Assembly: GCA_963713825.1 (NCBI GenBank)
Contig: CAVQNG010000003.1
Location: 64,001-128,000 of the forward strand
Direction: 5' to 3'
Length of the DNA stretch: 64,000 nucleotides
DNA from: an uncultured Acidobacteriota bacterium
Lineage (GTDB): Bacteria; Acidobacteriota; Thermoanaerobaculia; Multivoradales; JAHEKO01
This document shows, one piece after another, positions 30,058-58,679 of the stretch. How positions within the stretch are numbered: position 1 is the stretch's first letter; every line of letters begins with the position of its first letter. The notes under the pieces were generated by a model. It had not been told where the DNA came from. It made no database searches and saw only the letters and a program-made list of their open reading frames with translations. Position numbers and translations under genes: made by a program.

Positions 30058-30981
30058 TCAGCGCGAGAGAAAGGGCTCGATGGCGGCGACGAAGGCGGCC
30101 GGCGTTTCCTCCATCGGCGTATGACCGCATTTGGGAATGGCGACGAATGTGCCATCCGGAATGGCCTCGGCGAAGCGTTGGCCGGATTCCGCAGGCAGGA
30201 GTGGGTCTTCGGACCCCCACAGCACCAGAGTGGGCATCTCGAGGGCGTCGATATCGATCGAGCCTTGTGGACGTGAAGACTCCGCCGTCAGGCCACGGAA
30301 GGCTCGGTTGACGCCTTCGACCCTGAGTCGCTCTCGATACTCCTCGACCAGTGCCTCATCGACCTTACCCGGATCGTAGTACGAGGATTCCAGCGCATTC
30401 CTGAGGAAGCTGGGTCGTAGCATCCAACGCACGGCTATCGGTGTCAACGGCCCTGCACTCCGCAGGCGCCGGCCGGAATCGAACTCGGTGCCTGGAAAAG
30501 TGCTTCCAACCAAGACGAGCGAGCGGACTCGCTCCGGATGCCGGCTCGCCAGCCAGAGGGCCACGCCGCCCCCATACGAGTGGCCCACCACGTGGGCTCG
30601 CTCGATCTCCAGAGCGTCGAGCACCCCTAGCACGGTTTCGACCTGGTTCTCGAACGAGTAGGCCTGATACTCGTGAGGCCGCTCCGACCAGCCAAACCCT
30701 CGCAGGTCTGGGGCGACGAGCTGGTGTCGGTCGCCCAGCTCATCCGCCACTCGGACCCAGTTGTGGCTCGAGCCCCCGAAGCCGTGGATCAGAAGCACCG
30801 GGTCGCCGGCGCCCCACTGCTCGACGTAGACCTGCGAACCGTCGACCGTCACAAACCGATCGTCGGGTATTTGGGTACGGATCTCGGCGTAGGGCTGAAG
30901 AGGTGTGCAACTGACGGCCAGGACGGTCGTTCCAAAGACGATGATCGTTCTCAGGGTAACGAGCACGCTCTCGATAGGCAT
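30058..30981 (-). CDS. Alpha/beta-fold hydrolase, probable lipoprotein
   Basis: LIHGFGG, PDLRGFG.S, GHSYGG nucleophile elbow, WGSED, CGH.P.EE. Lipobox AVSC. Confidence 0.88.
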   Translation of the reverse strand: MPIESVLVTLRTIIVFGTTVLAVSCTPLQPYAEIRTQIPDDRFVTVDGSQVYVEQWGAGDPVLLIHGFGGSSHNWVRVADELGDRHQLVAPDLRGFGWSERPHEYQAYSFENQVETVLGVLDALEIERAHVVGHSYGGGVALWLASRHPERVRSLVLVGSTFPGTEFDSGRRLRSAGPLTPIAVRWMLRPSFLRNALESSYYDPGKVDEALVEEYRERLRVEGVNRAFRGLTAESSRPQGSIDIDALEMPTLVLWGSEDPLLPAESGQRFAEAIPDGTFVAIPKCGHTPMEETPAAFVAAIEPFLSR

Positions 30982-31075
30982 CAGCGGTCCTCTTCCCCGT
31001 CTGATTCGTAGCCCGCGCATCTGCGGTTTCCAATCGCCCGCATGGGCTCGCCTGCAGAGTTCGACCGGCGACCGA

Positions 31076-32563
31076 CTAGCCGCGGTTCCAGGCCACGACC
31101 TTCTTCGCAACGTTTTGCCCACAGAGGATGACCATCGGCATGCCGCCACCGGGGTTCACCGAGCCACCGACGAAGAACAGGTTGTCGTAGCGCTCGCTCT
31201 GTTTGGGCGCCTTGAACCCCAGATTCTTCCAGCGGTCGGCGGCGACACCGTAGATCGAGCCCTTGTTGGAGTAATACTGCTCGGCAATGTCCAGCGGCGT
31301 CCAGAAGTGCTCGAAGACGATGTGCTGGCGCAGGTCGGTCAGTCCCATCCGTTCCATCTTGTCCAGCACGATCTCTTTGAACACCGCATAGTCGTCCCGG
31401 GTCAAAGGGTTCTGCTCGTCGATGTATGGGATGTGTGGCAGGACCTTCAGACAGTCGCAGCCCTCGGGGGCCACGGATGGGTCGGAGCGCGAGGCGGCGA
31501 CCAGATAGATCGTCGGATCCGCTGGCAGCTCACGCTGGCGGAAGACAGTCTCGAAATGCTTCTTTTGATCTTCCGAGAACAGGAAGTTGTGATGTGCGAG
31601 GTGCGGATACTCGCAGTCCAGACCGAGATCGAGCACCAGACCCGAGCAGGCGGGCTCGAATCGCTCCAGCGAACGGAGGAACTCGGGATCCTCGCGCAGG
31701 AGGCGGGTGTAGGCCGGGATCACCTCCATGTTGGAGACGACGATGTCGAAGGGGAGTGGCTGCCCACCCTTGGGCGTGACGCTCGTAACCCTGCCGCCGC
31801 TCTTTCCGATCTCGGTGATCTCGGTCCCCAGTCGCAGCTCGATCCCGATCTCGTCGAGCAGCCGATGCAGGCCGCGGGCGATGTTGTACAGTCCGCCGTC
31901 TACGTACCACAAGTCGTGTTCGAACTGGATGTTGGGCAGGCAGTTCATGAATGCGGGTGCCCGATAGGCCGAAGAACCGACGTACTTGATGAAGTAGTCC
32001 ATGATGTCGCGCATGTAGCGGGTCTTGAGATGCCGGGCGACTGACTGATGCATGCTGCGGAAGAGGTCGAATTTCGGGAACTTGAGCAGACCGTAGAAAT
32101 CCCGGAATTCGTCCGAATTGTCGAGACCCTTCTCGAAGTAGCCCTCGTTGACCAGGTTGTAGAGATCCCGCGAGTAGTCGAGGAAGCGTCGAAATGCGGC
32201 CGGATCCTCGCCGACCTTGAGCAGCTCCGCTTCCATCAGGTCCGCTTCGGGATAAAGGTCGACGACCGTACCGTCCTCGAAGAAGTTCCGCCAGTGTGGC
32301 CTCAGCGTGCGGATCGGGATGTAGTCCTCCATCCGCTTGCCCGAGCGCTCGAACAGCCGACGAAACAGGTGCGGCAGCGTGAGGATCGACGGCCCAAGAT
32401 CGAAGGTGTAACCCTCGGCTTTGAGCTCGTTGAGCTTGCCACCGATCTGCGGGTTCTTGTCGAACAGCGTCACGACATAGCCTTCCTGGGCCAGAGAGAT
32501 GGCGGCGGAGATGCCACCGAGACCGGCCCCCACGACAGCAACACTTCTCCGGTGTTCGCTCAC
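31076..32563 (-). CDS. crtP: Diapolycopene oxygenase-type carotenoid oxidoreductase (CrtP/CrtNb-like)
   Basis: VVGAGLGG, FDLGPSILTLP, FIKYVGSS, FFVGGSVNPGGGMPMV; these motifs are typical of the CrtP/CrtNb branch of the CrtI family. Confidence 0.75.
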   Translation of the reverse strand: MSEHRRSVAVVGAGLGGISAAISLAQEGYVVTLFDKNPQIGGKLNELKAEGYTFDLGPSILTLPHLFRRLFERSGKRMEDYIPIRTLRPHWRNFFEDGTVVDLYPEADLMEAELLKVGEDPAAFRRFLDYSRDLYNLVNEGYFEKGLDNSDEFRDFYGLLKFPKFDLFRSMHQSVARHLKTRYMRDIMDYFIKYVGSSAYRAPAFMNCLPNIQFEHDLWYVDGGLYNIARGLHRLLDEIGIELRLGTEITEIGKSGGRVTSVTPKGGQPLPFDIVVSNMEVIPAYTRLLREDPEFLRSLERFEPACSGLVLDLGLDCEYPHLAHHNFLFSEDQKKHFETVFRQRELPADPTIYLVAASRSDPSVAPEGCDCLKVLPHIPYIDEQNPLTRDDYAVFKEIVLDKMERMGLTDLRQHIVFEHFWTPLDIAEQYYSNKGSIYGVAADRWKNLGFKAPKQSERYDNLFFVGGSVNPGGGMPMVILCGQNVAKKVVAWNRG

Positions 32564-46332: not shown

Positions 46333-47670
46333 ATGAAGACTCTCGTCCAAACTCTGCTTCAGCCGATCTCCCCTGAGCGCCGCCGTGTCAGCTCCGGGCG
46401 ATTCCAGGATCTGCCGGACTCTCTGAAGACGCCTGAACAGATTATCGGCTTCGCTCATCACTCGTGTGGTGCAACACACGGCGTGCTGGAGCGCTGTGAC
46501 TTCGCCTGTACCAGTTGCTATCTGGGCGAGGAGGCCAACGCTGCAGAGCCTCTGCCCAGGGAGGAGGTCTTTCAGCAACTCGATCAGCTGCGCGAGTTCT
46601 TGGGTCCGCAGGGTAAGGCACAAATCACCGCGGGAGAGGTCACTCTGCTTCCCCGTGAAGTGCTGGGAGAGTATGTGCGCTATGCGATCGACATCGGACT
46701 CGATCCGATGGTCATGACGCACGGTCGCCGCTTCCTCCAGGAGCCGGAATATCTACAGCGGCTGATCGAAGAAGACGGTCTGGAGAAGATCTCTATCCAT
46801 GTCGACGCCACGCAACGGGGGCGGGAGGAGTGGAGTCCCTTTGTCACAGAAGGACAGCTCAACCCGGTCAGAGATCGGTATGCGAATCTGATTCGCCACA
46901 TGCGGGCCAAGACGGGTCGAAAGCTCCACGCCGCCCACACCGTCACGGTCACCCAGAAGAACCTCGATCAGATACCGACTATCATGCGCTGGCTCGTTCG
47001 CAATCTCGATGCCTTCAGGATGGTGAGCTTTCAACCCGTGGCCGAAGTAGGGAGAACCGAGGATCAAGCCAGTGCTGACTTGACGCTGACCGATGTCTGG
47101 GAACACATTGGCACGGCTCTCGGAAAGCCCCTCAACCGGGACGCCATGCACTTTGGGCATCCCGAATGCCACATCATGATCCCCGTGGTCGTGGTTCGCG
47201 TCGGCGAGGAGCTCTGCGTTCTGGAAACGGTCCGAGCCGGAAAGAGCTGGGACCGTTCCTACCTACGGAACCTGCTTCGAGCGGTCGGTGGCTATACGGT
47301 TCGCGGCAAGAGCCGGGGCGAGAACCTCCTGGGAATCGCCTCGCTGACCCTTCACAACCCGCTTCTACTCCTCGAGACGCTCTTCTACGGCTTGTACCGC
47401 ATATGGGGTGATCGACGAGATCTGGCCCGGATCCTCCTGCAAGCCATTCGAAGACGTACCATGAGCGTCCGCCCCCTCGCTCTCGTGGTCCACAAGTTCA
47501 TGAGCTCAGGGGAGCTCGAGACACCCCTGGGGCGGGAACGTCTTCAGGCGTGCACTTTTCGAGTTCCCGTGGAGGGTAGGATGATCCCGATGTGTGAGCT
47601 CAACGCGACGGGCCTGCGATCGAAGCTGTACCCGGCAGCCCGTCCCAGAAAGGTGGTTGGGGAATCATGA
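46333..47670 (+). CDS. Radical SAM protein of unknown function
   Basis: CDFACTSC (CxxxCxxC), QITAGEVTL, SFQP.A.VGR. C-terminal ACTF.VP..G.MIPMC. Confidence 0.82.
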   Translation: MKTLVQTLLQPISPERRRVSSGRFQDLPDSLKTPEQIIGFAHHSCGATHGVLERCDFACTSCYLGEEANAAEPLPREEVFQQLDQLREFLGPQGKAQITAGEVTLLPREVLGEYVRYAIDIGLDPMVMTHGRRFLQEPEYLQRLIEEDGLEKISIHVDATQRGREEWSPFVTEGQLNPVRDRYANLIRHMRAKTGRKLHAAHTVTVTQKNLDQIPTIMRWLVRNLDAFRMVSFQPVAEVGRTEDQASADLTLTDVWEHIGTALGKPLNRDAMHFGHPECHIMIPVVVVRVGEELCVLETVRAGKSWDRSYLRNLLRAVGGYTVRGKSRGENLLGIASLTLHNPLLLLETLFYGLYRIWGDRRDLARILLQAIRRRTMSVRPLALVVHKFMSSGELETPLGRERLQACTFRVPVEGRMIPMCELNATGLRSKLYPAARPRKVVGES

Positions 47671-48461
47671 CAACGGCATCCATTCGCTTTCGCCTCGTGC
47701 TATCGATCCTCTGCGCTATCGTGGTCGGGTCGATGTCGATCTCCGCCAGAGCCGCTGATTTCTCCTACGACGACTGGAACGTTGTCCTGAAGAAGTACGT
47801 CGACGACAATGGCTTGGTCGACTACCAGGGCCTGGCAGCGGACCGCCAGGCGCTCGACCGGTTCATCAGCCAGATCGAGACCACCGGCCCCAAGAGCGAC
47901 CCTGAGGCCTTCCCGACTCGGGAGCATCGGCTCGCTTACTACATCAATGCCTACAACGCCCAGGTGTTCAAGGGCGTCCTGAGTCTGTCACCTGATACCA
48001 AGACGGTCTGGGGATTCACCGGTACAGGCCTCGGCTTTTTTGTTCGCATGAAGGTGACCGTCGATGGCGAGACGATGAGCCTAAAGTCCCTGGAGGACGA
48101 CATCATTCGCGATGGATTCAAAGACCCCCGGATCCACGCCGCCCTCAACTGCGCCTCGGTGGGGTGTCCGAAGTTACCCGCCGAGGCTTTTGTGGCCAAG
48201 CGACTCGACGAGCAGCTCGACGCCGAGATGACGAAGTTCGTCAACGAGGAGCGCAACTGCAAGATCGACGCGGCGGCGGGGACTGCAACCCTATCGAAGA
48301 TCTTCGACTGGTTCCGAGAGGACTTCGAAGAGTATGAAGCGGCACACGGGGGCGGTGGTCTGCGGGAGTACATCAATCGCTACCGCCCCGCCGACGCCCA
48401 GCTCAACGCCGAGCTCAGGCTGGAGTTCTCCAAGTACGACAAGAGCCTGAATCGGCAGTAA
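47667..48461 (+). CDS. DUF547 domain secreted protein
   Basis: GLVDY, LAYYINAYNA, DPRIHAALNCAS.GCP, LSKIFDWF.EDF, YD.SLN. ATGA overlap with the rSAM gene. Confidence 0.9.
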   Translation: MTTASIRFRLVLSILCAIVVGSMSISARAADFSYDDWNVVLKKYVDDNGLVDYQGLAADRQALDRFISQIETTGPKSDPEAFPTREHRLAYYINAYNAQVFKGVLSLSPDTKTVWGFTGTGLGFFVRMKVTVDGETMSLKSLEDDIIRDGFKDPRIHAALNCASVGCPKLPAEAFVAKRLDEQLDAEMTKFVNEERNCKIDAAAGTATLSKIFDWFREDFEEYEAAHGGGGLREYINRYRPADAQLNAELRLEFSKYDKSLNRQ

Positions 48462-48465
48462 GCGA

Positions 48466-49908
48466 CTACCCCGTGGCTTCTGCGACCTCGATTCGTTTCT
48501 TCTTGTCGACCCGCGCGTAGTCGTAGAGTCCGGCCTCGTCGAAGATGACGCGATCTTCGTAGTCGTCGAACCAGATGGCGTCCGGATTGCGACCGACGAT
48601 GCAGACCTTGCCGCGGTCGGGGGCGTCCAGTGCGTTGCGGAGGATCTTGAAGATCACCACACCGTTCTCGGTTCCAGGAATGCCGGGAATCGGCTCGTTC
48701 GTGACAGCGGCCACTTCGGTCTTGCCCTTGTAGTGCGTGATCGACAAGCGGGCATGCGTTTCCACGCCGGACAGCCCCTTCTGGGACTCGTTCAGGGTCT
48801 GCCACACGGTCTCGATCGGGACGTTGAAGGCTCGATAGGCCACGATGTCCCTGCCGCAGAAGAAGTAATGGTTGCCGACGCCGACCCGAAACAGGGCTCG
48901 TTGCATGACTCTGAGCGCTTCCGAGTCAGCGTTGACCCCCTTGATGATCGGCGCTTGGTTTTCGATCTGGATCCAACCCCGGGAGGTGAGCGCCTTCATG
49001 GCCCGCCAGGTGTCCTCGTGGAACCTGAGCGAACCGTTCGGATTGGTCAGGTAGGCACCATCAGGCCCCTTTTGCAGGAACTCGTCCGGGTGGTTGAAGT
49101 GGATCATCAACCGGAAACCGACATCCGGGTAGGTCTGGTGGAAGTTGTCCAGCATCGAGAGGAAAGCCTCGTCGAATCGCTTCGGATGGAAAGCCAGCTC
49201 CTTGGTGCCCAGTCGGATCGCTTCCACTCCGGCTTCCGCGAGAGAGGCTAGCCACTCGCCGATTTTCCGGTTGGGTAGCACCATCGGATCGCCGCCGGAC
49301 AACAGGACCTCGCGGAGCTTCTCGCGGCCCGTCTTCGGGTGCCTCCCACCGTTGGCGGCTACGATCTCGTTGTGGGCCCGCACGTAGTCGGTGACAGCTT
49401 TGATCTTCGCCAGCCCCTTCTTGGCAACGGTGCCGTCCTGGCGCTCGATCTCCTTCTGGCTGATCAATTCCTCGCGGTAGCAGAACCGGCAGTGTGCCGA
49501 GCAGGTGGAGACGACATAAAGCAGGCCCATCTCGTACTTGTGCAGCATTCCCTCCACCGGAGCGAAATCCATCTGGTAGCCGGGGTCCTCGGAGCCGGCC
49601 AGATTGAGCGTCTCGTCCGGACTGGCCTTGACGATCCTCTGTACCGCCTTGCTGTTCTTGGCAATCTCGAAATAGTGCCGGGTGATTTTCACCGGCATGC
49701 GCTCCTCCACGTCCCGTGCCGTTCCGTGAACGCGAGACAGTGCGGCAATTTCCTCCGGAGAGTAGAAGCTCTTCATGTCCTCCGGCGCCTTGTCCTCGTA
49801 GAAGGGCTTCAAGCCGATGATGATCTGACGGTCGTACTTGGGGTTCTCGATCGTGTCCAGGAACGCTTGTTCGCGCTGCGTCGGAACGTAGTTGTCGTCG
49901 GTTGCCAT
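48466..49908 (-). CDS. KamA-family radical SAM/PLP 2,3-aminomutase (divergent)
   Basis: HKY, CSAHCRFCYR, VLLSGGDP, IRLGTK, HFNHP.E, NQAPIIKGVN, LSG, KGKTE (putative PLP lysine). Confidence 0.88.
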   Translation of the reverse strand: MATDDNYVPTQREQAFLDTIENPKYDRQIIIGLKPFYEDKAPEDMKSFYSPEEIAALSRVHGTARDVEERMPVKITRHYFEIAKNSKAVQRIVKASPDETLNLAGSEDPGYQMDFAPVEGMLHKYEMGLLYVVSTCSAHCRFCYREELISQKEIERQDGTVAKKGLAKIKAVTDYVRAHNEIVAANGGRHPKTGREKLREVLLSGGDPMVLPNRKIGEWLASLAEAGVEAIRLGTKELAFHPKRFDEAFLSMLDNFHQTYPDVGFRLMIHFNHPDEFLQKGPDGAYLTNPNGSLRFHEDTWRAMKALTSRGWIQIENQAPIIKGVNADSEALRVMQRALFRVGVGNHYFFCGRDIVAYRAFNVPIETVWQTLNESQKGLSGVETHARLSITHYKGKTEVAAVTNEPIPGIPGTENGVVIFKILRNALDAPDRGKVCIVGRNPDAIWFDDYEDRVIFDEAGLYDYARVDKKKRIEVAEATG

Positions 49909-49972
49909 TTCACACCTCTTCTTTGGCTGTCGCTATCGGGATGCCATCTTTCGGAGTTGCTGATGTCAATCC

Positions 49973-50022
49973 GTACTGTAACACAATGTACTCTTGACTT
50001 GTGGTAATGTAACACAGTGAAC
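49973..50022. promoter_or_regulatory. Paired operator-like direct repeats in the divergent promoter region
   Basis: GTACTGTAACACAATGTAC (49973-49991) and GTAATGTAACACAGTGAAC (50004-50022). TTGACT lies between them; minus-strand TTGACA at 49964-49969. Confidence 0.55.
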
Positions 50023-50859
50023 ACCGCGGAAGTCCCCACCTCCACCAGAGACCTGGTAGCCGCGGTGAGCAGCGAGCTCACCCCCACCGAACGGCGCATT
50101 GCGGAAGCCGTGCTGGCAGAGCCGACGCTACTGGCCTTCGGTACGGTGTCGGACCTGGCGGGCCGCGTTCGCACCAGTCGACCGTCCGTTGTGCGTTTTG
50201 CCAGGAAGCTCGGCTTCGAAGGCTACACGCAGCTGCAACGAAACGTCCGCCGCGATCTCTCCCGCCGTCTCGCCCGCCCAAGTGAGCGGATCCGGCACGA
50301 TGACGAGACCGGCCGACCGGCCAGGGTGGCGCTCGACAGCGCCATCGCCTCCGTGTTCGAAGCGCTCGAGGGCGAACGGCGGGCGGCCCTCGCAGCACCC
50401 TTCGTGCGCGCAGAGAACGTCTGGGTCCTTTCCGGAGAGACCTCGCAGGCTGGCGCCCATGCGTTCCACAGTCGCCTCTCCATCGTCCGACCTGGCGTGC
50501 GTTTGCTCGACGAGCACTCGATTGGCACCGACCTGAGCAGTGCGGGACCCGGCGACGCGGCGATCGTCTTCGACTTCTTTCGCTACCGCCGCCGCGTGGC
50601 CACAGCTGCCCGCTTCCTCGCGGATTCCGGTGCCACCGTCGTCGCGATCACCGACAGCCCGCTGTCGCCTCTGGTAGAGATGGCCGATCTCTGGTGCGAG
50701 GTCGAGGTGCCGGCCATCGGCCCGTTCGACAGCTCGGTCCCTGTCGTTGCGATTGCCGAGTCGCTCGTCTCCCAGGTGGCCAGGGATCTCCAGAACGAGG
50801 CGACTGCCCGTATCGACCGCATCGAGGCGCTTTGGGAAGCGACAGAGGTCTTCCTTTAG
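50017..50859 (+). CDS. MurR/RpiR family transcriptional regulator
   Basis: LTPTERRIA, S.PSVVRFARKLGFEGY..LQ HTH. SIS domain with AITDSPLSPL. Confidence 0.92.
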   Translation: MNTAEVPTSTRDLVAAVSSELTPTERRIAEAVLAEPTLLAFGTVSDLAGRVRTSRPSVVRFARKLGFEGYTQLQRNVRRDLSRRLARPSERIRHDDETGRPARVALDSAIASVFEALEGERRAALAAPFVRAENVWVLSGETSQAGAHAFHSRLSIVRPGVRLLDEHSIGTDLSSAGPGDAAIVFDFFRYRRRVATAARFLADSGATVVAITDSPLSPLVEMADLWCEVEVPAIGPFDSSVPVVAIAESLVSQVARDLQNEATARIDRIEALWEATEVFL

Positions 50860-50913
50860 CTATTCAATACCCAGGATTCGACAACCAGGAATCGCAGCCC
50901 AGGAGGTGTACCG

Positions 50914-51624
50914 GTGATTGACAAGACTTACCTTTCCGTCGCGGAGGCCGTGGCCGATATCCCGGACGGCGCGACCGTGATGGTGGGTGGCTTTGGCGCC
51001 TCGGGTAGCCCGATCGAGCTACTCCACGCGCTGATCGACCAGGGCGCCACCGGCCTGACCGTCATCAACAACAACACCGGCAACGGTGATGTGGGGCTGG
51101 CGGCGCTGATCGGCAACGGTCAGGTCAGCAAGATGATCTGCTCCTTTCCCCGATCCAGCCAGTCCAGGGTCTTCCCGAAGATGTACCAGGCAGGCAAGGT
51201 CGAGCTCGAGCTCGTCCCGCAGGGGACCCTCGCCGAACGAATTCGGTCGGGGGGCGCGGGGATTCCGGCGTTCTACACCCCGACCACGGTGGGCACCATC
51301 CTGGCCGAGGACAAGGAGTCGCGGGATTTCGATGGGCGCACCTTCGTGATGGAGCGCTGGCTCAAGGCCGACTTCGCACTGATCAAGTGCGAGGTCGCCG
51401 ACTCCCTCGGCAACCTGACCTACAACAAGACAGCGCGAAATTTCAGCCCTCTCATGTGCATGGCGGCTTCAACGACCATCGTGCAAGCGAAGCGACTGGT
51501 GGCCCGCGGTGAGATCGACCCAGAGCACGTCGTCACGCCCGGCATCTTCGTGGATCGCGTCGTCGAAGTCTCTCAGCCGGTCCACGAGGACACCCTCATC
51601 GCCGCGGGAAGGAGTTACCCATGA
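50914..51624 (+). CDS. pcaI: 3-oxoacid (3-oxoadipate-type) CoA-transferase subunit A
   Basis: MIDK, VMVGGFG, NNTGNG..GLAAL, ICSFPR, PQGTLAERIR.GGAGIPAFYTPT, TARNF.P.M. Confidence 0.88.
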   Translation: MIDKTYLSVAEAVADIPDGATVMVGGFGASGSPIELLHALIDQGATGLTVINNNTGNGDVGLAALIGNGQVSKMICSFPRSSQSRVFPKMYQAGKVELELVPQGTLAERIRSGGAGIPAFYTPTTVGTILAEDKESRDFDGRTFVMERWLKADFALIKCEVADSLGNLTYNKTARNFSPLMCMAASTTIVQAKRLVARGEIDPEHVVTPGIFVDRVVEVSQPVHEDTLIAAGRSYP

Positions 51625-52268
51625 GCAACGGTTGGACTCGAGAGCAGATGGCAGCGAGAGCGGCCCAGGACATCCCCGACGGCTCGTACGTCAATCTGGG
51701 AATTGGCATTCCCGAGCTGGTCGCGAAGTTCGTTCCGGCAGGCCGAGAGTTCATCTACCACACCGAGAACGGCATGCTCGGCATGGGTCCGCCGCCCACC
51801 GACGAGGAGCGGGACCTGGACCTGATGAACGCCGGTAAGAAGTACGTGACCGAGGTCCCCGGCGCCGCCTATTTCCACCATGCCGACAGCTTCAGCATGA
51901 TTCGTGGCGGCCATATCGATGTCTGTGTTCTCGGCACCATGCAGGTGGCGGAGAACGGCGACCTCGCCAACTGGTCGACCGGAGAGCCAGGTGCCATTCC
52001 CGCGGTAGGCGGCGCTATGGACCTGGTTCAGGGAGTCGAACGCATCTACGTGATCACCCAGCACACGACCAAGACAGGCGAACCAAAACTGGTCGGAAGG
52101 TGCAGCTATCCGCTAACCGGGACAGGGGTCGTGTCGCGGATCTATACCGATCTCGCCGTGGTCGACGTCACCGCGGATGGGTTCCGTGTCTTCGAGCTGG
52201 CGCCGGAGATCACTTTCGAAGAAGTCGAACAGAAAACCGGGGCGCCGATCCTGCCGGCCGAGCGATAG
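51621..52268 (+). CDS. pcaJ: 3-oxoacid (3-oxoadipate-type) CoA-transferase subunit B
   Basis: YVNLGIGIP, HTENG (catalytic Glu), HHADSF.MIRGGH.D, IPAVGGAMDL. Confidence 0.88.
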   Translation: MSNGWTREQMAARAAQDIPDGSYVNLGIGIPELVAKFVPAGREFIYHTENGMLGMGPPPTDEERDLDLMNAGKKYVTEVPGAAYFHHADSFSMIRGGHIDVCVLGTMQVAENGDLANWSTGEPGAIPAVGGAMDLVQGVERIYVITQHTTKTGEPKLVGRCSYPLTGTGVVSRIYTDLAVVDVTADGFRVFELAPEITFEEVEQKTGAPILPAER

Positions 52269-52308
52269 CGCTGGTATCAAGTCCCTATTCGAGAACAGGA
52301 CATGACAA

Positions 52309-53508
52309 ATGACCGATGTATTCCTGTGTGATGGCATTCGAACGCCCGTCGGACGCTACGGCGGGGCCCTCTCAACGGTCCGGACAGACGATCTGGCAGC
52401 AATACCGATCACGGAACTGATGGAGCGGAATCCAGGGGTCGACTGGGACGCCCTGGACGATGTGATGCTGGGCTGTGCCAATCAGTCTGGGGAAGACAAC
52501 CGCAACGTGGCTCGCATGAGCAGCCTGCTGGCCGGTCTGCCCCAGGAGGTGCCGGCCTCGACCATCAATCGGCTGTGCGGCTCTGGACTCAATGCCGTGG
52601 GTACCTGCGCCAGCGCCATCAAGACGGCAGAGGGCGAACTGATGATCGCCGGCGGCGTGGAGAGCATGTCCCGCGCCCCCTTCGTCATCGGCAAGGCGGA
52701 AGGCGCCTTCGGACGGACGCAGGAGATGCACGACAGCACCATGGGGTGGCGCTTCATCAACCCGAAGCTGCAAGAGCAGTACGGCACGGATGTCATGCCG
52801 AAGACGGCGGAGAACCTGGCTGAGGAGTACGACATCAGCCGTGAGGATCAAGATCGCTTCGCGTTCTGGAGCCAGACCAAGGCAGCCACTGCGCAGGCCG
52901 ATGGTCGTCTTGCCGGTGAGATCTGCGCGGTCACCGTTCCGCGGCGCAAGCAGGACCCTCTGATCGTCGACCGGGATGAGCATCCACGCGAGACATCGCT
53001 CGAAAAACTCGCCAAGCTGCGACCGCTGTTTCCCGACGGCACCGTGACCGCGGGCAACGCCTCGGGCATCAATGACGGAGCCGCGGCCCTGCTACTGGCT
53101 TCGGAGGCAGGAGCCAAGCGCCACAACCTGGAACCCAGGGCCCGCATTCTCGGCATGGCCGTTGCCGGCGTACCGCCTAGGATCATGGGAATTGGACCAG
53201 TTCCGGCAACCCGCAAGCTACTCGCGCGTCTGAAGTTGACGCTGGACGATTTCGACATTCTCGAGCTCAACGAAGCCTTCTCGGCCCAAGCGCTCACCTG
53301 TACTCGGCAACTGGGGCTGGCCGATGACGACCCGAGGATCAACACCCGCGGGGGCGCGATCGCGTTGGGCCACCCGCTCGGCATGAGTGGCGCCCGCCTG
53401 GCGGTGACCGCGATGGATCAACTCCAGCGCGATGGAGGGAAGCTGGCGCTCTGCACCATGTGCATCGGGGTGGGGCAAGGGATCGCCCTCGTTCTGGAAG
53501 GACTCTGA
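52309..53508 (+). CDS. pcaF: 3-oxoadipyl-CoA thiolase (PcaF/PaaJ type)
   Basis: [60 protein letters not shown]. Confidence 0.9.
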
Positions 53509-53510
53509 GA

Positions 53511-54815
53511 ATGGAATCACTCGAGCAAGCCATCGAAGGCGCCCGGGCGCGGTACGCGTCCGCCAATCCCCTCAGCCAGGCCGCGGATCACGAGGCGGAA
53601 CGTTGCCTGCCAGGTGGCAACACGCGCTCGGTCCTCTACTTCGAGCCCTTTCCCTTGACCATGGTCACCGGAGAGGCAGCAGAGCTGACCGACCTGGATG
53701 GTCACCAGTACGTTGATTTCGTAGGCGAGTTCTCCGCGGGCCTGTTCGGACATTCGAACGAGATCATCAAATCAGCGGTGCACGAGGCCCTCGACACGGG
53801 TGTCGTCATGGGTGCGCCGACCCGCTTCGAAAGAGAGCTGGCCAGCCTGTTGTGCGAACGGTTCCCCTCGGTCGACGAGATCAGGTTCTGCAACTCGGGT
53901 ACCGAGGCCAACATCATGGCGCTGGCCGCGGCGCGAGCCGTGACGGGCCGCGACAAGGTCCTGGTCTTCGAAGGCGCCTATCACGGTGGCGTCCTCAAAT
54001 TCCCGGCCGGAGGCTCGCCCCTCAACGTCCCCTACGACTTTGTCCTCGGGGTCTACAACGACATCGAAGGCACCGCCGAGTTGATCCACCGCGCGGGAGA
54101 CGAGATCGCGGCCGTCATCGTCGAACCTATTCTGGGCGCCGGCGGAAACATTCCCGGCAGCCTGGAGTTCCTGAAGATGCTCCGGCGAGAGACGCGGCAA
54201 GTCGGGGCGTTGCTGATCTTCGATGAAGTCAAGACCTCGCGGCTTGGCCCGGCGGGTCTCCAGGGTTTGCTGGGTATCGAGCCCGATCTGACAGCGCTCG
54301 GGAAGTACATCGGCGGCGGGCTGCCGACAGGCGCGTTCGGCGGCAGCGCCGAGATCATGGAACGCTTCAACCCGAAACAGAAGGGCTCCTGGGCCCACGC
54401 CGGTACCTTCAACAACAACATCTGTTCGATGGCCGCCGGCTGTGCGGCGATGAGTCGGGTCTATACGCCACAACGCGCGGCGGAGTTCTTCGCAACCTCC
54501 GAGGCATTTCGGGTGTCGCTCAACGAGATGTTCACAGAGCGAGAGGTGCCGATGCATTGCAACGGACTGGGATCCATCTTCGCGATTCACTTCGCACGTC
54601 AGCCGGTTCGAAAGACGGCCGATATCACCGCAGGATGCTTATCCCTTCGCCCCCTGCTGCACATGGAGCTGCTCCTCGAAGGCGTTCTGGTCTGCAGTCG
54701 CGGCGACATGTTCCTGTCGCTGCCGATGACCGAGACCCATCTTTCGAAGGCACGTCACGCCCTCGAAAGCTTCGCCGATCGTTACAAACCTCTGATTCTC
54801 GAAGTCCTGCAGTAG
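53511..54815 (+). CDS. Class III PLP aminotransferase, beta-amino-acid transaminase type
   Basis: PGGNTRSVL...PFPL, GEFSAGLFGHS, NSGTEAN, YHGG, VLGVYND.EGT, LIFDEV.TSRL, LGKYIGGG, AHAGTFNNN, SRG. These match my recollection of the Mesorhizobium/Variovorax beta-phenylalanine aminotransferases. Confidence 0.85.
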   Translation: MESLEQAIEGARARYASANPLSQAADHEAERCLPGGNTRSVLYFEPFPLTMVTGEAAELTDLDGHQYVDFVGEFSAGLFGHSNEIIKSAVHEALDTGVVMGAPTRFERELASLLCERFPSVDEIRFCNSGTEANIMALAAARAVTGRDKVLVFEGAYHGGVLKFPAGGSPLNVPYDFVLGVYNDIEGTAELIHRAGDEIAAVIVEPILGAGGNIPGSLEFLKMLRRETRQVGALLIFDEVKTSRLGPAGLQGLLGIEPDLTALGKYIGGGLPTGAFGGSAEIMERFNPKQKGSWAHAGTFNNNICSMAAGCAAMSRVYTPQRAAEFFATSEAFRVSLNEMFTEREVPMHCNGLGSIFAIHFARQPVRKTADITAGCLSLRPLLHMELLLEGVLVCSRGDMFLSLPMTETHLSKARHALESFADRYKPLILEVLQ

Positions 54816-54907
54816 TTCGGGGGACACAATACTGATTCCCACCGTTAGTGGGCTGCAGGGACGGGCAGGGGTGATTCGGAGCTGAGATGCTCGGGGAATC
54901 CGAAGTA

Positions 54908-54929
54908 TGGCTGGGAGGCAGGGATTCGA
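54908..54929 (-). repeat. Direct duplication of the tRNA-Gln 3' end (att-like)
   Basis: TGGCTGGGAGGCAGGGATTCGA is identical to 55078-55099. Confidence 0.85.
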
Positions 54930-55077
54930 GGATCGCAAGCGACCCTCGATGCGAGCTGTGTCTTCGGGGAGGGCAAAGCCCCTCCCCGTACCCCTCCCCA
55001 GGGGTTCGAATCCCAGCGAGTGCACTGACCCGCAGAGAACAAATTCGGAAGTGTGGTGCTTGAATAGTCAGGTGGGG

Positions 55078-55151
55078 TGGCTGGGAGGCAGGGATTCGAA
55101 CCCCGATTCCACGGTCCAGAGCCGCGTGTCCTACCATTGAACGACCTCCCA
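55078..55151 (-). tRNA. tRNA-Gln(CTG)
   Basis: TGGGAGG/CCTCCCA acceptor stem, anticodon arm CGCGG-CTCTGGA-CCGTG, GTTCGAATC T-loop, encoded CCA. Confidence 0.95.
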
Positions 55152-55329
55152 ACGGCGGCGAGATCCTAGCAATTCCCTAGGCGAGAGGTCAAACCCCGAG
55201 ATCGTCAGAACAATCAGGCAGTGACCCGAAAGTTCTATACTTGGCGAGGGTGATGTTTCCTGTGATCGATTCGAAAATCCGAGACACAGGAGTCCTGTGA
55301 ATCGCCATACCAAAGAGGGGGACGGGACC

Positions 55330-56241
55330 GTGTCAGAGACCAGACCCACGAACCTGCGTACCATTCTTGTCGCCACAGACTTCTCACAGACTGCTCAGGC
55401 GGGAATCGACTGGGCCGTGCTGTTGGCGAGCTCACATGGAGCCCGCATTGAGCTGGTGCACGCCCTCCTCGTACCGAATCGAGCAACAGACTTCGTTCCC
55501 TCGCCACCCGATTTCACCGAGGCGCTGCAAGAAGCTGCCTCCGGCAAACTGAACGAAGCAGCTGAAGCCATCCGGGCGAAAGGGGTGGAGGTCGATTCCC
55601 ATCTCCGCCTCGGAGTCCCGTCCCAGGTGCTCCTGCAGACCGCCGAAGACAAGGAGGTCGACACGATCGTCGTCGGCACACGCGGTCTCACAGGAATCCG
55701 ACACCTACTCCTTGGCAGCACCGCGGAGCGAGTCGTGCAGCACGCCACTTGTCCGGTATTGACGGTCCACCCCGGCGACGCCGATCACCACCGCGAGATC
55801 AGAACGGTTCTGGTCTCGACCGACTTCTCCCATGACTCCGAGACGAGCATCGCCGCCGCATTGCGCCTGCTCGGCCCGCAGCCCGAAGCCAAGCTCGTTC
55901 TGCTCCACGTCTATCATCTGCCCTACGAGTACACGGCATACGGCACGATCCCCACCTCGCTGGACTATTTCAAGGATGTCGAAGGCGCCGCAGAGGAACG
56001 CCTCAATGAGATGGCCCGCGTCCTCGGTCGAGAAGGCCTCACTGTCGAGACCGTGGCCAAGGAGGGCTATCCCCCGGACACGATCATCGATCAGGCAGAC
56101 GAGGTCGGTGCCGACCTCATCGCCCTCGGAACTCACGGCCGAACAGGCCTCGCACACCTGCTGCTGGGCAGCACGGCGGAGCGCGTCGTGCAACACGCAC
56201 GCTGTCCCGTGCTCACGGTGAAGACCGCAGGCGAAAGCTGA
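55330..56241 (+). CDS. Universal stress protein, tandem USP domains
   Basis: Two repeats of (I/V)LV.TDFS...G(T)RG/HG...LLLGSTAERVVQHA.CPVLTV. Confidence 0.92.
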   Translation: MSETRPTNLRTILVATDFSQTAQAGIDWAVLLASSHGARIELVHALLVPNRATDFVPSPPDFTEALQEAASGKLNEAAEAIRAKGVEVDSHLRLGVPSQVLLQTAEDKEVDTIVVGTRGLTGIRHLLLGSTAERVVQHATCPVLTVHPGDADHHREIRTVLVSTDFSHDSETSIAAALRLLGPQPEAKLVLLHVYHLPYEYTAYGTIPTSLDYFKDVEGAAEERLNEMARVLGREGLTVETVAKEGYPPDTIIDQADEVGADLIALGTHGRTGLAHLLLGSTAERVVQHARCPVLTVKTAGES

Positions 56242-56371: not shown

Positions 56372-56465
<94 letters not shown>

Positions 56466-56660
56466 GCGGTCCTTGCAGGACTTCACATTCTATGGGCCCC
56501 TTCGAGCCGGAGTCAAAGCATGCTTTCAGCCGCGGCTCCTCGGTTGGCAGACGCCCGAATCCCGGCTATGCTCGTGCCACCCCAAGCTGTTGGATCCCTT
56601 GACCACGCAACTCCACCATCCGTTGACGCCCCATCTCTCGCTGGAACGAAAGGCAGATTC

Positions 56661-58679
56661 ATGAGCCCCAAGGCCCAGGCTGAAGTCGACACGACGGCCA
56701 TCAATACCCTTCGCTTTCTCGCCGTGGACATGGTGGAGAAAGCGAACTCCGGACACCCCGGTGCACCCATGGGACAGGCCGCGATGGCCTACTCCCTCTG
56801 GACTCGCCACCTGCGTTTCAGCCCCGGGACTCCAGGCTGGCCGAATCGGGACCGATTCGTTCTTTCCTGCGGCCACGCATCGGCCCTGATCTACTCACTC
56901 CTTCACCTCAGCGGCTTCGATGTTCCTTTGAGCGCACTGCAGGAGTTCCGGCAGTTCGAATCGATCACCCCTGGTCATCCGGAGTACGGTCTGACTCCAG
57001 GCGTGGAAACAACGACCGGGCCTCTCGGTCAGGGACTCGCCAACGGCGTCGGTATGGCCATGGCCGAAGAGATGCTGGCCGCCTACTTCAATCGTGACGG
57101 GTACGACCTTCTCGACTACAACACCTGGATCTTTGCCAGTGATGGAGACCTGATGGAGGGGATCGCTTCCGAGGCCTCTTCGCTCGCTGGGCACCTCGAA
57201 TTGGGCAAACTCATCGTAGCCTGGGATGACAACCGGATCTCGATCGATGGCTCGACATCCCTGACCTTCAGCGAAGATGTGTGCCAGCGCTACGAAGCCT
57301 ACGGCTGGCATGTGCAGAGGGTCGAGGACGGCAACGACCTCGAGGCCCTCGACGCGGCCTACGAAACGGCCCGAGAGGAAGGCAACAGACCCTCCCTGAT
57401 CGCAGTACGCACGCACATCGGCTTCGGCAGCCCCAACAAGCAGGATACTTCGGCCTCTCACGGTGCCCCGCTGGGGGCCGAAGAGGTCGTTGCCACCAAG
57501 AAGGCGTTGGGTTGGCCTCTCGAGCCGACCTTTCATATTCCCGAGAAAGGCCTCGAGCCGTTTCGGAATGCCGCTGAAGGGGGTGCCCTGGAGGAGATGG
57601 CCTGGAGGGAGATGTTCTCGCTCTATGCCGAGGACCATCCGGAGTTGGCGAGTGAGTTCCTGAATCGACTCGCCCGAACGCTGCCCTCGGAATGGACCGA
57701 GAGCCTGTCCACTTTCGGTGTTGGGGACGGCCCCCTCGCTACGCGCAAAGCGTCAGGCAAGGTCCTCAACTCCATTTGTGACGCCATCCCCTACCTGGTG
57801 GGTGGCTCCGCCGACCTCGCCGGTTCCAACAATACCTACCTCCAGGGTCTCAGTGATTTCTCGGCTGGCGAACCCGGCGGCCGAAACCTCCATTTCGGCG
57901 TTCGCGAGCACGCCATGGGTGCCATTCTCAACGGGCTGGCCCTTTCCGGAATGCTAATTCCTTACGGCGGCACGTTTTTGATCTTTTCGGACTACATGCG
58001 GCCTTCGATCCGCCTCGCGGCCCTCATGGGGCTGCCGGTCAAGTATGTCTTCACGCACGACTCGGTCTTCGTGGGAGAGGATGGGCCCACCCATCAGCCG
58101 ATCTCCCAACTGCTGTCGCTGAGGGCCATCCCTGGCCTCACCGTGATCCGGCCCGCTGACGCCAACGAGACAGCGGCTGCTTGGCGGGTGGCCATCGAAC
58201 GCCAAGACGGCCCGACTGCACTTGCTCTGAGCAGACAGAGCTTACCGGTCATCCGGCAGGATCCGGAGAAGGCAATGGAGGGCGTGGCTCGGGGGGCCTA
58301 TGTCGTGGCCGACCCTGACGAAGACGAGCCCCAACTGGTGCTCATTGCCTCAGGTTCAGAGGTGTCCCTGGCTCTCGATGCCCAGGCCTTGCTGGCGGAG
58401 CAGGAGATCGCGGCCCGCGTCGTGAGCTTTCCGTCCTGGGACCTCTTCGACGCCCAGGATCGCGACTACCAGGAGAGCGTCCTACCGCCGGGGATCTCGA
58501 AGCGGCTGGCGATCGAGGCCGGGACGACGCTGGGCTGGGACCGCTATGTCGGCGCCGAGGGAGATGTCATCGGCATCGACAGCTTCGGAGCCTCGGCTCC
58601 CCACCAGGCCGTCGCCGAGCATTTCGGATTGACCCCCGAATCGGTGGTGGAGCGCGCCAAGGCCCTCCTCCTCCGCTAA
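56661..58679 (+). CDS. tkt: Transketolase
   Basis: [52 protein letters not shown]. The real start is MSPKAQ; the ORF-track start overlaps tRNA-Ser. Confidence 0.97.

Follow-up and report, generated by a model that had tools for sequence, protein, structure and literature searches.

A conserved gene cluster that joins a KamA-like radical enzyme to a beta-transaminase-type aminotransferase and a CoA-transferase looks like an undescribed route of amino acid breakdown

RESULTS AND DISCUSSION

Layout of the cluster

The stretch of DNA analyzed here (the window) comprises 64,000 nucleotides, positions 64,001 to 128,000 of contig CAVQNG010000003.1 in assembly GCA_963713825.1, from an uncultured Acidobacteriota bacterium of the Thermoanaerobaculia. 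It carries a cluster of six genes in which the gene for a KamA-like radical S-adenosylmethionine (SAM)/pyridoxal 5'-phosphate (PLP) enzyme is divergent from a + strand operon encoding an RpiR-family regulator, two subunits of a CoA-transferase, a thiolase, and a class III aminotransferase. An earlier note on this DNA, made from the letters alone, had described six such genes as divergent and tightly packed; all six are located where it placed them, the + strand series has gaps of 54 and 40 bases and a 4-base overlap between pcaI and pcaJ, and a spacer of 108 bases separates the KamA-like gene from rpiR. The features of the cluster are as follows (aa, amino acids; ORF, open reading frame).

48466-49908, - strand: KamA-like radical SAM/PLP gene, 480 aa, candidate 2,3-aminomutase for an acidic amino acid; key residues C136/C140/C143, R145, S204-G-G-D207, R353, S389, and K396
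49974-49982, - strand: GTTACAnTA box, distal copy, candidate RpiR operator and/or -10 element
50005-50013, - strand: GTTACAnTA box, rpiR-proximal copy, candidate RpiR operator and/or -10 element, ending 4 bases short of the rpiR start codon
50017-50859, + strand: rpiR, RpiR/MurR-family regulator with HTH_6 and SIS domains, opening the + strand operon
50914-51624, + strand: CoA-transferase subunit A (PcaI-like 3-oxoacid CoA-transferase, TIGR02429)
51621-52268, + strand: CoA-transferase subunit B (PcaJ-like 3-oxoacid CoA-transferase, TIGR02428)
52309-53508, + strand: PcaF-type thiolase (3-oxoadipyl-CoA thiolase, TIGR02430), an optional member of the module
53511-54815 (longest ORF from GTG 53460), + strand: beta-transaminase-type class III aminotransferase, with matches to beta-transaminases in the PDB

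The true start of the aminotransferase is probably the ATG at 53511, which lies 3 bases past the thiolase stop and corresponds to residue 18 of the longest ORF, since most orthologues are about 435 aa long.

The KamA-like gene keeps the same partners in different phyla

A search with the KamA-like protein against one genome per species (GTDB set) returned 281 relatives, and the best 80 of these were kept as loci (L001 to L080) that carry up to 10 kb of flank and encode KamA-like proteins 72-98% identical to the query. When 15 window proteins were compared with the 80 loci by tblastn, PcaI was found in 75, PcaJ in 73, and the class III aminotransferase in 65, and an RpiR orthologue adjoins the KamA-like gene in 68. 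The PcaF-type thiolase was found in only 29, and PcaIJF is therefore not a constant core. Several of the misses are contig ends (L002, L024, and L075). Of the other window proteins, the DUF547 protein and the stress protein each recur in 2 of the 80 loci, and the upstream radical SAM gene, the transketolase, and the gene at 58692 in 1 each. The gene-neighborhood check that had been set beforehand consequently upheld the association of the KamA-like gene with the CoA-transferase and the aminotransferase, across phyla, in two gene orders, and in a third form on a plasmid. The description of the cluster as PcaIJF under an RpiR regulator held in part: PcaI- and PcaF-like proteins are present, but the thiolase is optional, RpiR is absent from some loci, and a GlxA-type regulator stands in its place in Mesorhizobium.

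The best match, which is 98% identical, is labeled Thermoanaerobaculia, and the labels of the other loci include Woeseiaceae, Lysobacterales, Chromatiales, Acidimicrobiia, other Actinomycetota, Planctomycetota (Bythopirellula), Gemmatimonadota, Polyangiaceae, Krumholzibacteriia, and Kiloniellales. Nearly all carriers among the best 80 loci are metagenome-assembled genomes (MAGs), many of them derived from sediment.

Two gene orders occur among these loci. In the gamma-type order, which is that of the window, the KamA-like gene is divergent from rpiR-pcaI-pcaJ-(pcaF)-aminotransferase; it occurs in most loci labeled Gammaproteobacteria or Thermoanaerobaculia and in two Bythopirellula loci. In the actino-type order, found mostly in Acidimicrobiia and under some other labels, rpiR is divergent from a co-directional kamA-pcaI-pcaJ-aminotransferase run. 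Each order has its own type of aminotransferase (30 sequences of each). The third version lies on the conjugative plasmid NZ_AP023244.1 of the cultured Mesorhizobium sp. 113-3-3 and consists of a KamA-like gene (66.5% identical), the ferredoxin gene fdxA, an actino-type aminotransferase 61% identical to that of the actino-type locus L047, a glutaconate-type CoA-transferase pair whose beta subunit matches 1poi_B (E 1.8e-32), and a GlxA/AraC-type regulator. A radical enzyme, a GSAM-like aminotransferase, and a family I CoA-transferase therefore co-occur in all three versions, while the aminotransferase, the CoA-transferase, and the regulator have each been exchanged at least once between them. 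That the functions are kept together while their components are swapped is what would be expected of a functional pathway and not of chance adjacency.

The linkage was also seen from the side of the aminotransferase. Of 401 genomes sampled evenly from the phylum, only 4 have an aminotransferase at least 71% identical to that of the window, the next best match being 42% identical. The cluster occurs in all 4 positive genomes; three of them show the KamA-like gene as well, and the remaining contig stops at rpiR.

Clustering of the 1,081 ORFs of the 80 loci revealed no further recurring partner family, the next most frequent being an ABC ATPase (10 loci), an acyl-CoA ligase (7), and FtsK (6). A Pfam scan of 246 flanking ORFs, made in two halves, gave no family with more than about 10 members among the top 25 families listed per half; the counts were 4 + 6 for NAD_binding_8, 4 + 4 for Pyr_redox_2, 4 + 3 for AMP-binding, 3 + 3 for Oxidored_FMN, and 2 + 0 for Sacchrp_dh_C. 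Among the 80 loci, no transporter, dehydrogenase, or lysine-to-aminoadipate enzyme emerged as a recurring partner. A saccharopine-dehydrogenase-like gene beside rpiR in L044 was considered as a partner and rejected, as it had a tblastn match in no other locus.

Some neighbors are specific to particular lineages. In four related Acidimicrobiia loci only (L040, L041, L043, and L044), a polar amino acid ABC transporter, whose ATPase is GlnQ-like and whose two permease proteins are unusually long (526-615 aa), lies upstream of rpiR, and it is between this transporter and rpiR that the saccharopine-dehydrogenase-like gene of L044 is found; these neighbors provide a lineage-specific hint at amino acid uptake and lysine metabolism. 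The Oxidored_FMN (6) and Pyr_redox_2 (8) flanking ORFs suggest that 2,4-dienoyl-CoA-reductase-like or amine-dehydrogenase-like proteins lie near the aminotransferase in some loci. On the Mesorhizobium plasmid (our locus L081, 1-6884 and 11995-17918), the module variant is situated about 5 kb downstream of a BREX-1 defense system (pglX, pglZ, brxL). The alpha subunit of its CoA-transferase is absent from the gene table; the 912-base gap in question holds an ORF of 242 aa with a weak CoA_trans match, so that the subunit may be a pseudogene or simply unlisted.

The KamA-like protein has the predicted fold of lysine 2,3-aminomutase and a probably altered substrate pocket

KamA models are the only family matches of the KamA-like protein, and all of them lie far below their cut-offs. 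It scores 93.3 bits against the generic KamA family TIGR00238 (cut-off 199.2), 70.4 against lysine 2,3-aminomutase TIGR03820 (525.4), 79.4 against glutamate 2,3-aminomutase TIGR04368 (650), 81 against the arginine 2,3-aminomutase model (600), and 79 against the EpmB model (369). A profile of 29 family sequences nevertheless aligns with residues 8-356 of the lysine 2,3-aminomutase of Clostridium subterminale (2a5h) at E 4.8e-78, and the AlphaFold2 model of the protein (pLDDT 89.8) has 2a5h as its top Foldseek match (E 1.8e-19, TM scores 0.57/0.66, about 19% identity), the next match standing at 1.9e-05. On the strength of this model, the predicted fold is that of lysine 2,3-aminomutase, and the term KamA-type used in the earlier note is right for the fold and the superfamily and does not extend to membership of the curated KamA family. 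The residues align as follows.

2a5h Cys125/Cys129/Cys132 (CxxxCxxC): C136/C140/C143 in the window protein
2a5h Arg134: R145
2a5h Ser169-Asp172 (SGGD): S204-D207
2a5h Asp293: R353
2a5h Asp330: S389
2a5h Lys337 (G336-K337): K396 (G395-K396)

All of these window residues are invariant in 70 family sequences, across which 186 of the 480 positions never vary, and K396 is invariant also in the 29 sequences of the profile. In 2a5h, Arg134 is taken to bind the alpha-carboxylate, Lys337 to hold PLP, and Asp293 and Asp330 to bind the epsilon-ammonium group of lysine; in glutamate 2,3-aminomutase, Lys and Asn occupy the two aspartate positions. With these presumed roles, the alignment suggests that the catalytic machinery of an aminomutase is intact, that lysine would be excluded, and that an anionic side chain would be favored. 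The protein differs from 2a5h further by two insertions (about 150-198 and 280-300) and by a different C-terminal part.

The family is tight and isolated. Only 79 representatives, many of them fragments, matched at E ≤ 1e-30 in a library that had been clustered at 50% identity, and the next full-length relatives are 30-46% identical. None of ten relatives that were scanned reaches a named equivalog, and the five closest also fall below the generic KamA cut-off. In 21 related genomes, no member of the glutamate 2,3-aminomutase family was found above cut-off.

The aminotransferase belongs with solved beta-transaminases

The best PDB matches of the window aminotransferase are the beta-transaminases 6iz9 (E 2.4e-136) and 2yku (E 2.8e-136) and the Variovorax beta-phenylalanine aminotransferase 4ao9 (E 4.6e-123); true HemL enzymes match at E 1e-69 or weaker, and at 297 bits against a cut-off of 398 the protein is not a HemL. 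The PGGNTRS, GEFSAGLFGHS, and AHAGTFNNN motifs, in which the earlier note had recognized the pattern of beta-amino-acid transaminases, are present and align with the solved enzymes. The window protein keeps the residues aligned with the MesAT pocket positions Arg54, Tyr172, Lys280 (the PLP lysine), Ala312, and Arg412. It has Lys at the Met256 position and Asp at the Met414 position, both invariant in 30 of 30 gamma-type orthologues. Of the solved enzymes, 2yku (from Mesorhizobium sp. LUK) and 4ao9 (from Variovorax paradoxus) are known for aromatic and aliphatic beta-amino acids.

The aminotransferases of the two gene orders are non-orthologous, and both fall in the GSAM-like branch that holds the solved beta-transaminases, their nearest matches being beta-amino-acid transaminases or HemL-like enzymes. 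The actino-type enzyme is about 34% identical to that of the window, is nearest to 6k8h and ForI (6ssd), and keeps the arginine of the GGxxR motif.

The CoA-transferase is PcaIJ-like and the thiolase is of the PcaF type

CoA-transferase A scores 354 bits against TIGR02429 (cut-off 128.5) and CoA-transferase B 295 bits against TIGR02428 (cut-off 243.55), models (pcaI_scoA and pcaJ_scoB) that do not tell PcaIJ from ScoAB. Subunit A is 68-71% identical to genes on rhizobial plasmids, among them, at 68.8% identity (330 bits), the PcaI of an IclR-pcaI-pcaJ-pcaF operon on the Rhizobium phaseoli plasmid NZ_CP013565.1; its best solved match is 3cdk (225 bits), named succinyl-CoA:3-ketoacid transferase. 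The thiolase exceeds the cut-off of the pcaF equivalog TIGR02430 (677 against 597 bits), which was reached in 0 of 14 control genomes, and it matches the beta-ketoadipyl-CoA thiolase 6pca at E 8.1e-168.

Conserved boxes lie in the rpiR/kamA spacer

The RpiR protein has an N-terminal HTH_6 domain (Pfam, 52.5 bits) and a C-terminal SIS domain (38.1 bits) and is far below every named equivalog. The spacer between rpiR and the KamA-like gene holds twin direct copies of GTTACA in 58 of 69 loci, spaced by 31 bases in 55 and by 30 in 3, and one exact copy in the remaining 11; the consensus of the box in these spacers is approximately tgtGTTACAtTA. In the 64-kb window, GTTACANTA has two matches only, the copies at 49974-49982 and 50005-50013, where 0.10 would be expected, and two or more matches occurred in 0 of 100 shuffles. 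Read toward the KamA-like gene, the box resembles an extended -10 element (TGnTAnnnT), and toward rpiR it contains TAATGT; judging from these letters, the boxes are a candidate operator and/or promoter. A standard promoter and terminator scan of 48200-55400 gave nothing above shuffled expectation and missed the conserved GTTACA boxes. Conservation of this non-coding sequence across phyla indicates that the spacer moved with the genes and makes joint control of both transcription units likely.

The host genome lacks known feeders of 3-oxoadipate, and the module is patchily spread

The host genome is 5.42 Mb in size and 96% complete, and the genome-wide negatives given here refer to its assembled part. 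The cluster thiolase is the only one in this genome above the pcaF cut-off, and the cluster PcaI the only PcaI/ScoA above cut-off. The earlier note had remarked that no ring-cleavage, lactone-hydrolase, or IclR/PcaR gene lies in the window, and this is true of the whole genome as searched: IclR_C and the protocatechuate dioxygenase beta subunit (PcaH) had no match, and neither a PcaD enol-lactonase (best 164.8 bits, cut-off 255.85) nor PaaA of the phenylacetate route (best 29.6 bits, cut-off 280) was found above cut-off. With aromatic feeder genes absent above cut-off, nothing known would feed 3-oxoadipate to the cluster enzymes.

Within the genus, the KamA-like protein has a match in three genomes (G000, G003, and G004) and none in three less complete ones; the 12 genomes counted in the survey of 21 related genomes take in an unpublished one (G006). 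Between different phylum labels, the CoA-transferase subunits are 64-98% and the KamA-like proteins 72-98% identical, much more than vertical descent would leave, and this identity together with the patchiness argues for horizontal transfer of the module with its spacer boxes among sediment bacteria.

Near-identical DNA was detected, at half or more of the sampled words, in 18 of the 24 public runs listed (14 studies); these runs are labeled as sediment, freshwater sediment, and salt-marsh metagenomes, and one may be the source of the window itself. In the metatranscriptome run X19, a fraction of 0.07 of the sampled words was present, and its contigs are short, 90-97% alike, and spread over the KamA-like gene, rpiR, pcaF, and the aminotransferase gene (23 of 30 bins). 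We set these contigs aside as evidence of transcription because they come from relatives and may reflect DNA carry-over. Another run, X20, is probably DNA.

A proposed pathway from an alpha-amino acid through its beta-isomer

From the gene content, the conserved linkage, the fold and cofactor residues of the radical enzyme, and the conserved spacer boxes, we infer enzymatic activities, a substrate, a direction of flux, and a role for the regulator. On balance, we believe that the cluster is a self-contained catabolic module of five to six genes that has moved between phyla and degrades an alpha-amino acid via its beta-isomer. The KamA-like radical SAM/PLP enzyme would move the amino group of an acidic amino acid from C2 to C3, with L-2-aminoadipate as our first and L-glutamate as our second choice; the aminotransferase would then take off the C3 amino group to leave a 3-oxo group, and the family I CoA-transferase would form the CoA ester, with succinyl-CoA as the probable donor, either ahead of the transaminase step or following it. 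The PcaF-type thiolase, which about a third of loci encode within the module and which presumably has its gene elsewhere in the other carriers, would cleave 3-oxoadipyl-CoA to acetyl-CoA and succinyl-CoA, the latter regenerating the CoA donor. RpiR would probably control both divergent units through the two GTTACA boxes of the shared spacer.

The earlier note had chained these enzymes without a gap from the alpha-amino acid to the 3-oxoacid and only then to the CoA ester. The recurring partners agree with such a chain; its order is less certain, since in a variant lysine fermentation the HemL-like transaminase Kat works exclusively on 3-aminobutyryl-CoA (Perret et al. 2011, PMC3149608), and the aminotransferase of the module might likewise act after the CoA-transferase and not on the free acid. 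Either order is possible, and the gene content is indecisive between them.

Our preference for 2-aminoadipate as the substrate is tentative. It is favored because the thiolase is of the PcaF type and the CoA-transferase is PcaI-like, because the succinyl-CoA freed by thiolysis would recharge the CoA-transferase, and because a redox-neutral path would replace two oxidative decarboxylations; the exchange of Asp293 for Arg353 and of Asp330 for Ser389 argues for an anionic side chain, as far as an alignment can suggest it. Glutamate seems a less likely substrate, and the remaining probability falls to another substrate or a different reaction. The earlier note had called 2-aminoadipate the neatest fit, and Arg353 does fit an acidic substrate, but the choice stays among several candidates that include glutamate. 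Its overall interpretation was borne out in part, namely for the linkage, the kinship with beta-transaminases, and the lack of aromatic feeders. In its most specific form, the proposal is that the module contains the first 2-aminoadipate 2,3-aminomutase and provides a non-aromatic, oxygen-independent, and carbon-conserving route that has spread horizontally, along with a regulator and operator of its own, among sediment bacteria under five or more phylum-level labels, and in this form we regard it as possible and would not yet call it probable. If it is true, 2-aminoadipate would be converted to 3-aminoadipate, 3-oxoadipate, and finally succinyl-CoA and acetyl-CoA, bypassing 2-oxoadipate dehydrogenase and glutaryl-CoA dehydrogenase, and the substrate logic would be set for a large uncharacterized KamA superfamily branch in which Arg takes the place of Asp293.

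Several observations weigh against this proposal. The KamA-like protein lies below every curated cut-off, so that it may catalyze a different radical reaction. The 30-46% identical relatives of unknown function likewise have Arg at the Asp293 position, so that this residue is not specific to the module (two canonical-looking relatives have Asp there), and a long Arg in place of Asp would be no less suited to the shorter glutamate than to 2-aminoadipate. The glutaconate-type CoA-transferase of the Mesorhizobium variant hints at a C5 acid, and the gamma-type aminotransferase has an invariant Asp at the MesAT Met414 position that seems an awkward match for a second carboxylate, whether on the 2-aminoadipate or the glutamate route. 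The thiolase is missing from 51 of the 80 loci, and two loci have no partners despite their flank, L057 with 10 kb on both sides and L077 with 9 kb upstream and less than 1 kb downstream. Regulators with a SIS domain usually sense sugar phosphates. Finally, no L-lysine 6-transaminase was found above cut-off in the host genome, and a source of 2-aminoadipate was therefore not identified there.

Alternative explanations

The alternative that deserves most attention differs from the favored scheme in chain length only: L-glutamate would be converted to beta-glutamate and then to 3-oxoglutarate or its CoA ester, which would yield acetoacetyl-CoA by decarboxylation or else acetyl-CoA and malonyl-CoA. 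Arg353 fits the acidic side chain of glutamate too, and a longer basic residue reaching out to a shorter substrate is what glutamate 2,3-aminomutase itself has in its Lys and Asn. Glutaconate CoA-transferase, which the Mesorhizobium pair resembles, is an enzyme of C5 dicarboxylates; a thiolase that is dispensable in most loci fits acetoacetyl-CoA, which housekeeping thiolases could manage; and the carriers come from sediments, in whose pore water beta-glutamate is abundant. We still consider this route unlikely, as the thiolase, where present, is of the PcaF type above the equivalog cut-off, PcaI is closest to rhizobial pcaIJF genes, and the KamA-like protein has 79 of the 650 bits that define a glutamate 2,3-aminomutase. 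Glutamate, moreover, already reaches central metabolism in one step, and a four-enzyme detour through an oxygen-sensitive enzyme would need a special reason. Less probable again is that an environmental beta-amino acid, such as beta-glutamate or 3-aminoadipate, is taken up and burned, with the mutase as a side branch between alpha and beta forms that may run from beta to alpha. Aminomutase reactions are reversible, the gamma-type mutase gene is a separate divergent transcription unit, and the transaminase has solved relatives that were discovered as enzymes using beta-amino acids. A linear pathway fits better with the actino-type order, where the mutase heads the co-directional CoA-transferase and transaminase run, and no transporter recurs apart from the polar amino acid ABC system of the 4 related Acidimicrobiia loci.

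Two further readings concern the radical enzyme itself. It is improbable, to about the same degree as uptake of a beta-amino acid or slightly more so, that the KamA-like protein is no aminomutase and carries out some other radical SAM/PLP reaction, or that the cluster serves biosynthesis from 3-oxoadipate toward a beta-amino acid or 2-aminoadipate. Its scores below all curated family cut-offs, its insertions and C-terminal part, its Foldseek TM scores of 0.57 and 0.66, and the fact that its closest relatives are all uncharacterized would allow for another reaction. The cluster cysteines, the SAM-binding GGD, the PLP lysine, and the carboxylate-binding arginine are all kept, however, all three independent versions of the module include partners that would use up a beta-amino acid, and the patchy, accessory spread (4 of 401 genomes of the phylum, with the transaminase as marker) fits catabolism better than biosynthesis. 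Least probable of all is an ordinary lysine 2,3-aminomutase, with lysine degraded via beta-lysine and 6-amino-3-oxohexanoate. Several JGI records do label homologues "lysine 2,3-aminomutase," the only solved relative is that enzyme, and, in the gamma-type transaminase, the Asp found invariably at the Met414 position could accommodate a cationic side chain. Both aspartates that would bind the epsilon-amine are nonetheless replaced in all 70 sequences, the score of 70 bits is far from the 525-bit cut-off of the lysine model, and thiolysis would give 4-aminobutyryl-CoA, which has no obvious fate.

Relation to known systems

With KamA, the radical enzyme shares the fold, the CxxxCxxC and SGGD motifs, the Arg134-aligned arginine, and the PLP lysine; with the Rhizobium phaseoli operon, the cluster shares the pcaI-pcaJ-pcaF order. 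It departs from the classical beta-ketoadipate operon in having RpiR instead of IclR/PcaR, a radical SAM enzyme and a transaminase joined to it, and a thiolase that is optional, and from the classical pathway in that its host genome has no ring-cleavage, cycloisomerase, or enol-lactonase genes that we could find. We are not aware of a report that gives the beta-transaminases 2yku and 4ao9 an aminomutase partner. The succession of alpha-amino acid, beta-amino acid, 3-oxoacid, 3-oxoacyl-CoA, and thiolysis is reportedly that of Poston's "beta-keto pathway," whose leucine 2,3-aminomutase is said to be B12 dependent and to act on a branched neutral amino acid; to our knowledge, no genes were ever assigned to it.

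Lysine fermentation in its Kat variant also begins with a KamA-family enzyme and has a HemL-like transaminase, a two-subunit CoA-transferase, a thiolase, and clustered genes (PMC3149608). It also requires beta-lysine 5,6-aminomutase, 3,5-diaminohexanoate dehydrogenase, and the cleavage enzyme Kce, and the present module has none of these; unlike the enzyme of that route, its mutase is also without the lysine-binding aspartates. Given these two precedents, only the substrate and the gene set look new.

A full-text search of open-access papers and bioRxiv found no published account of such an enzyme or pathway. In that literature, 3-aminoadipate, beta-aminoadipate, and aminoadipate aminomutase appeared only in metabolomics, meteorite chemistry, or reviews; nothing relevant was among the matches listed for aminomutase with CoA-transferase or beta-glutamate, and the word "aminomutase" was absent from those listed for beta-ketoadipate terms. 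The earlier statement that the pathway had not been described is in line with these searches, although the general scheme has its precedents, and the module looks like an as yet undescribed route of amino acid breakdown.

Radical SAM 2,3-aminomutases have few known substrates, those with NCBIfam models being lysine, glutamate, and arginine, and the conserved new clade would add one; having a metabolic context, it also offers a handle on the wider uncharacterized KamA-like branch. The lower beta-ketoadipate pathway is familiar as the last stretch of aromatic degradation, and entry from an amino acid would alter how pcaIJF genes without ring-cleavage genes are read. With the module present in Woeseiaceae, Acidimicrobiia, and Thermoanaerobaculia MAGs and in sediment and salt-marsh DNA, it may matter for amino acid turnover in sediments. 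3-Aminoadipate and 3-oxoadipate are sought as intermediates for bio-based adipic acid, for which a natural aminoadipate aminomutase would be useful. Mesorhizobium sp. 113-3-3 offers a cultured carrier of a module variant.

Neighboring genes in the window

The genes around the cluster are not conserved with it. Upstream lie a radical SAM gene and a DUF547 gene, and downstream a universal stress protein gene and a transketolase gene. The radical SAM gene (46333-47670) and the DUF547 gene (47667-48461) were considered as members of the module and ruled out, being present in 1 and 2 of the 80 loci, respectively. This pair (46333-48461, + strand), in which the 445-aa radical SAM protein is translationally coupled to the DUF547 protein, is convergent with the KamA-like gene and is retained in the two nearest loci only (L001 and L002); the radical SAM protein has a weak likeness to TrsS (69 bits) and to the tetraether lipid synthase Tes (62 bits), far below cut-off. 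The sole match to the PcaD model in the window, a 363-aa alpha/beta hydrolase encoded at 30058-31149 (- strand), 17 kb away from the cluster, scores 73 bits, split over two pieces (cut-off 255.85), and looks generic. The transketolase (56373-58679, + strand) has a longest ORF of 768 aa in which the TIGR00232 match begins at residue 109, so that either its start codon was called too early or the protein has an N-terminal extension of about 100 aa.

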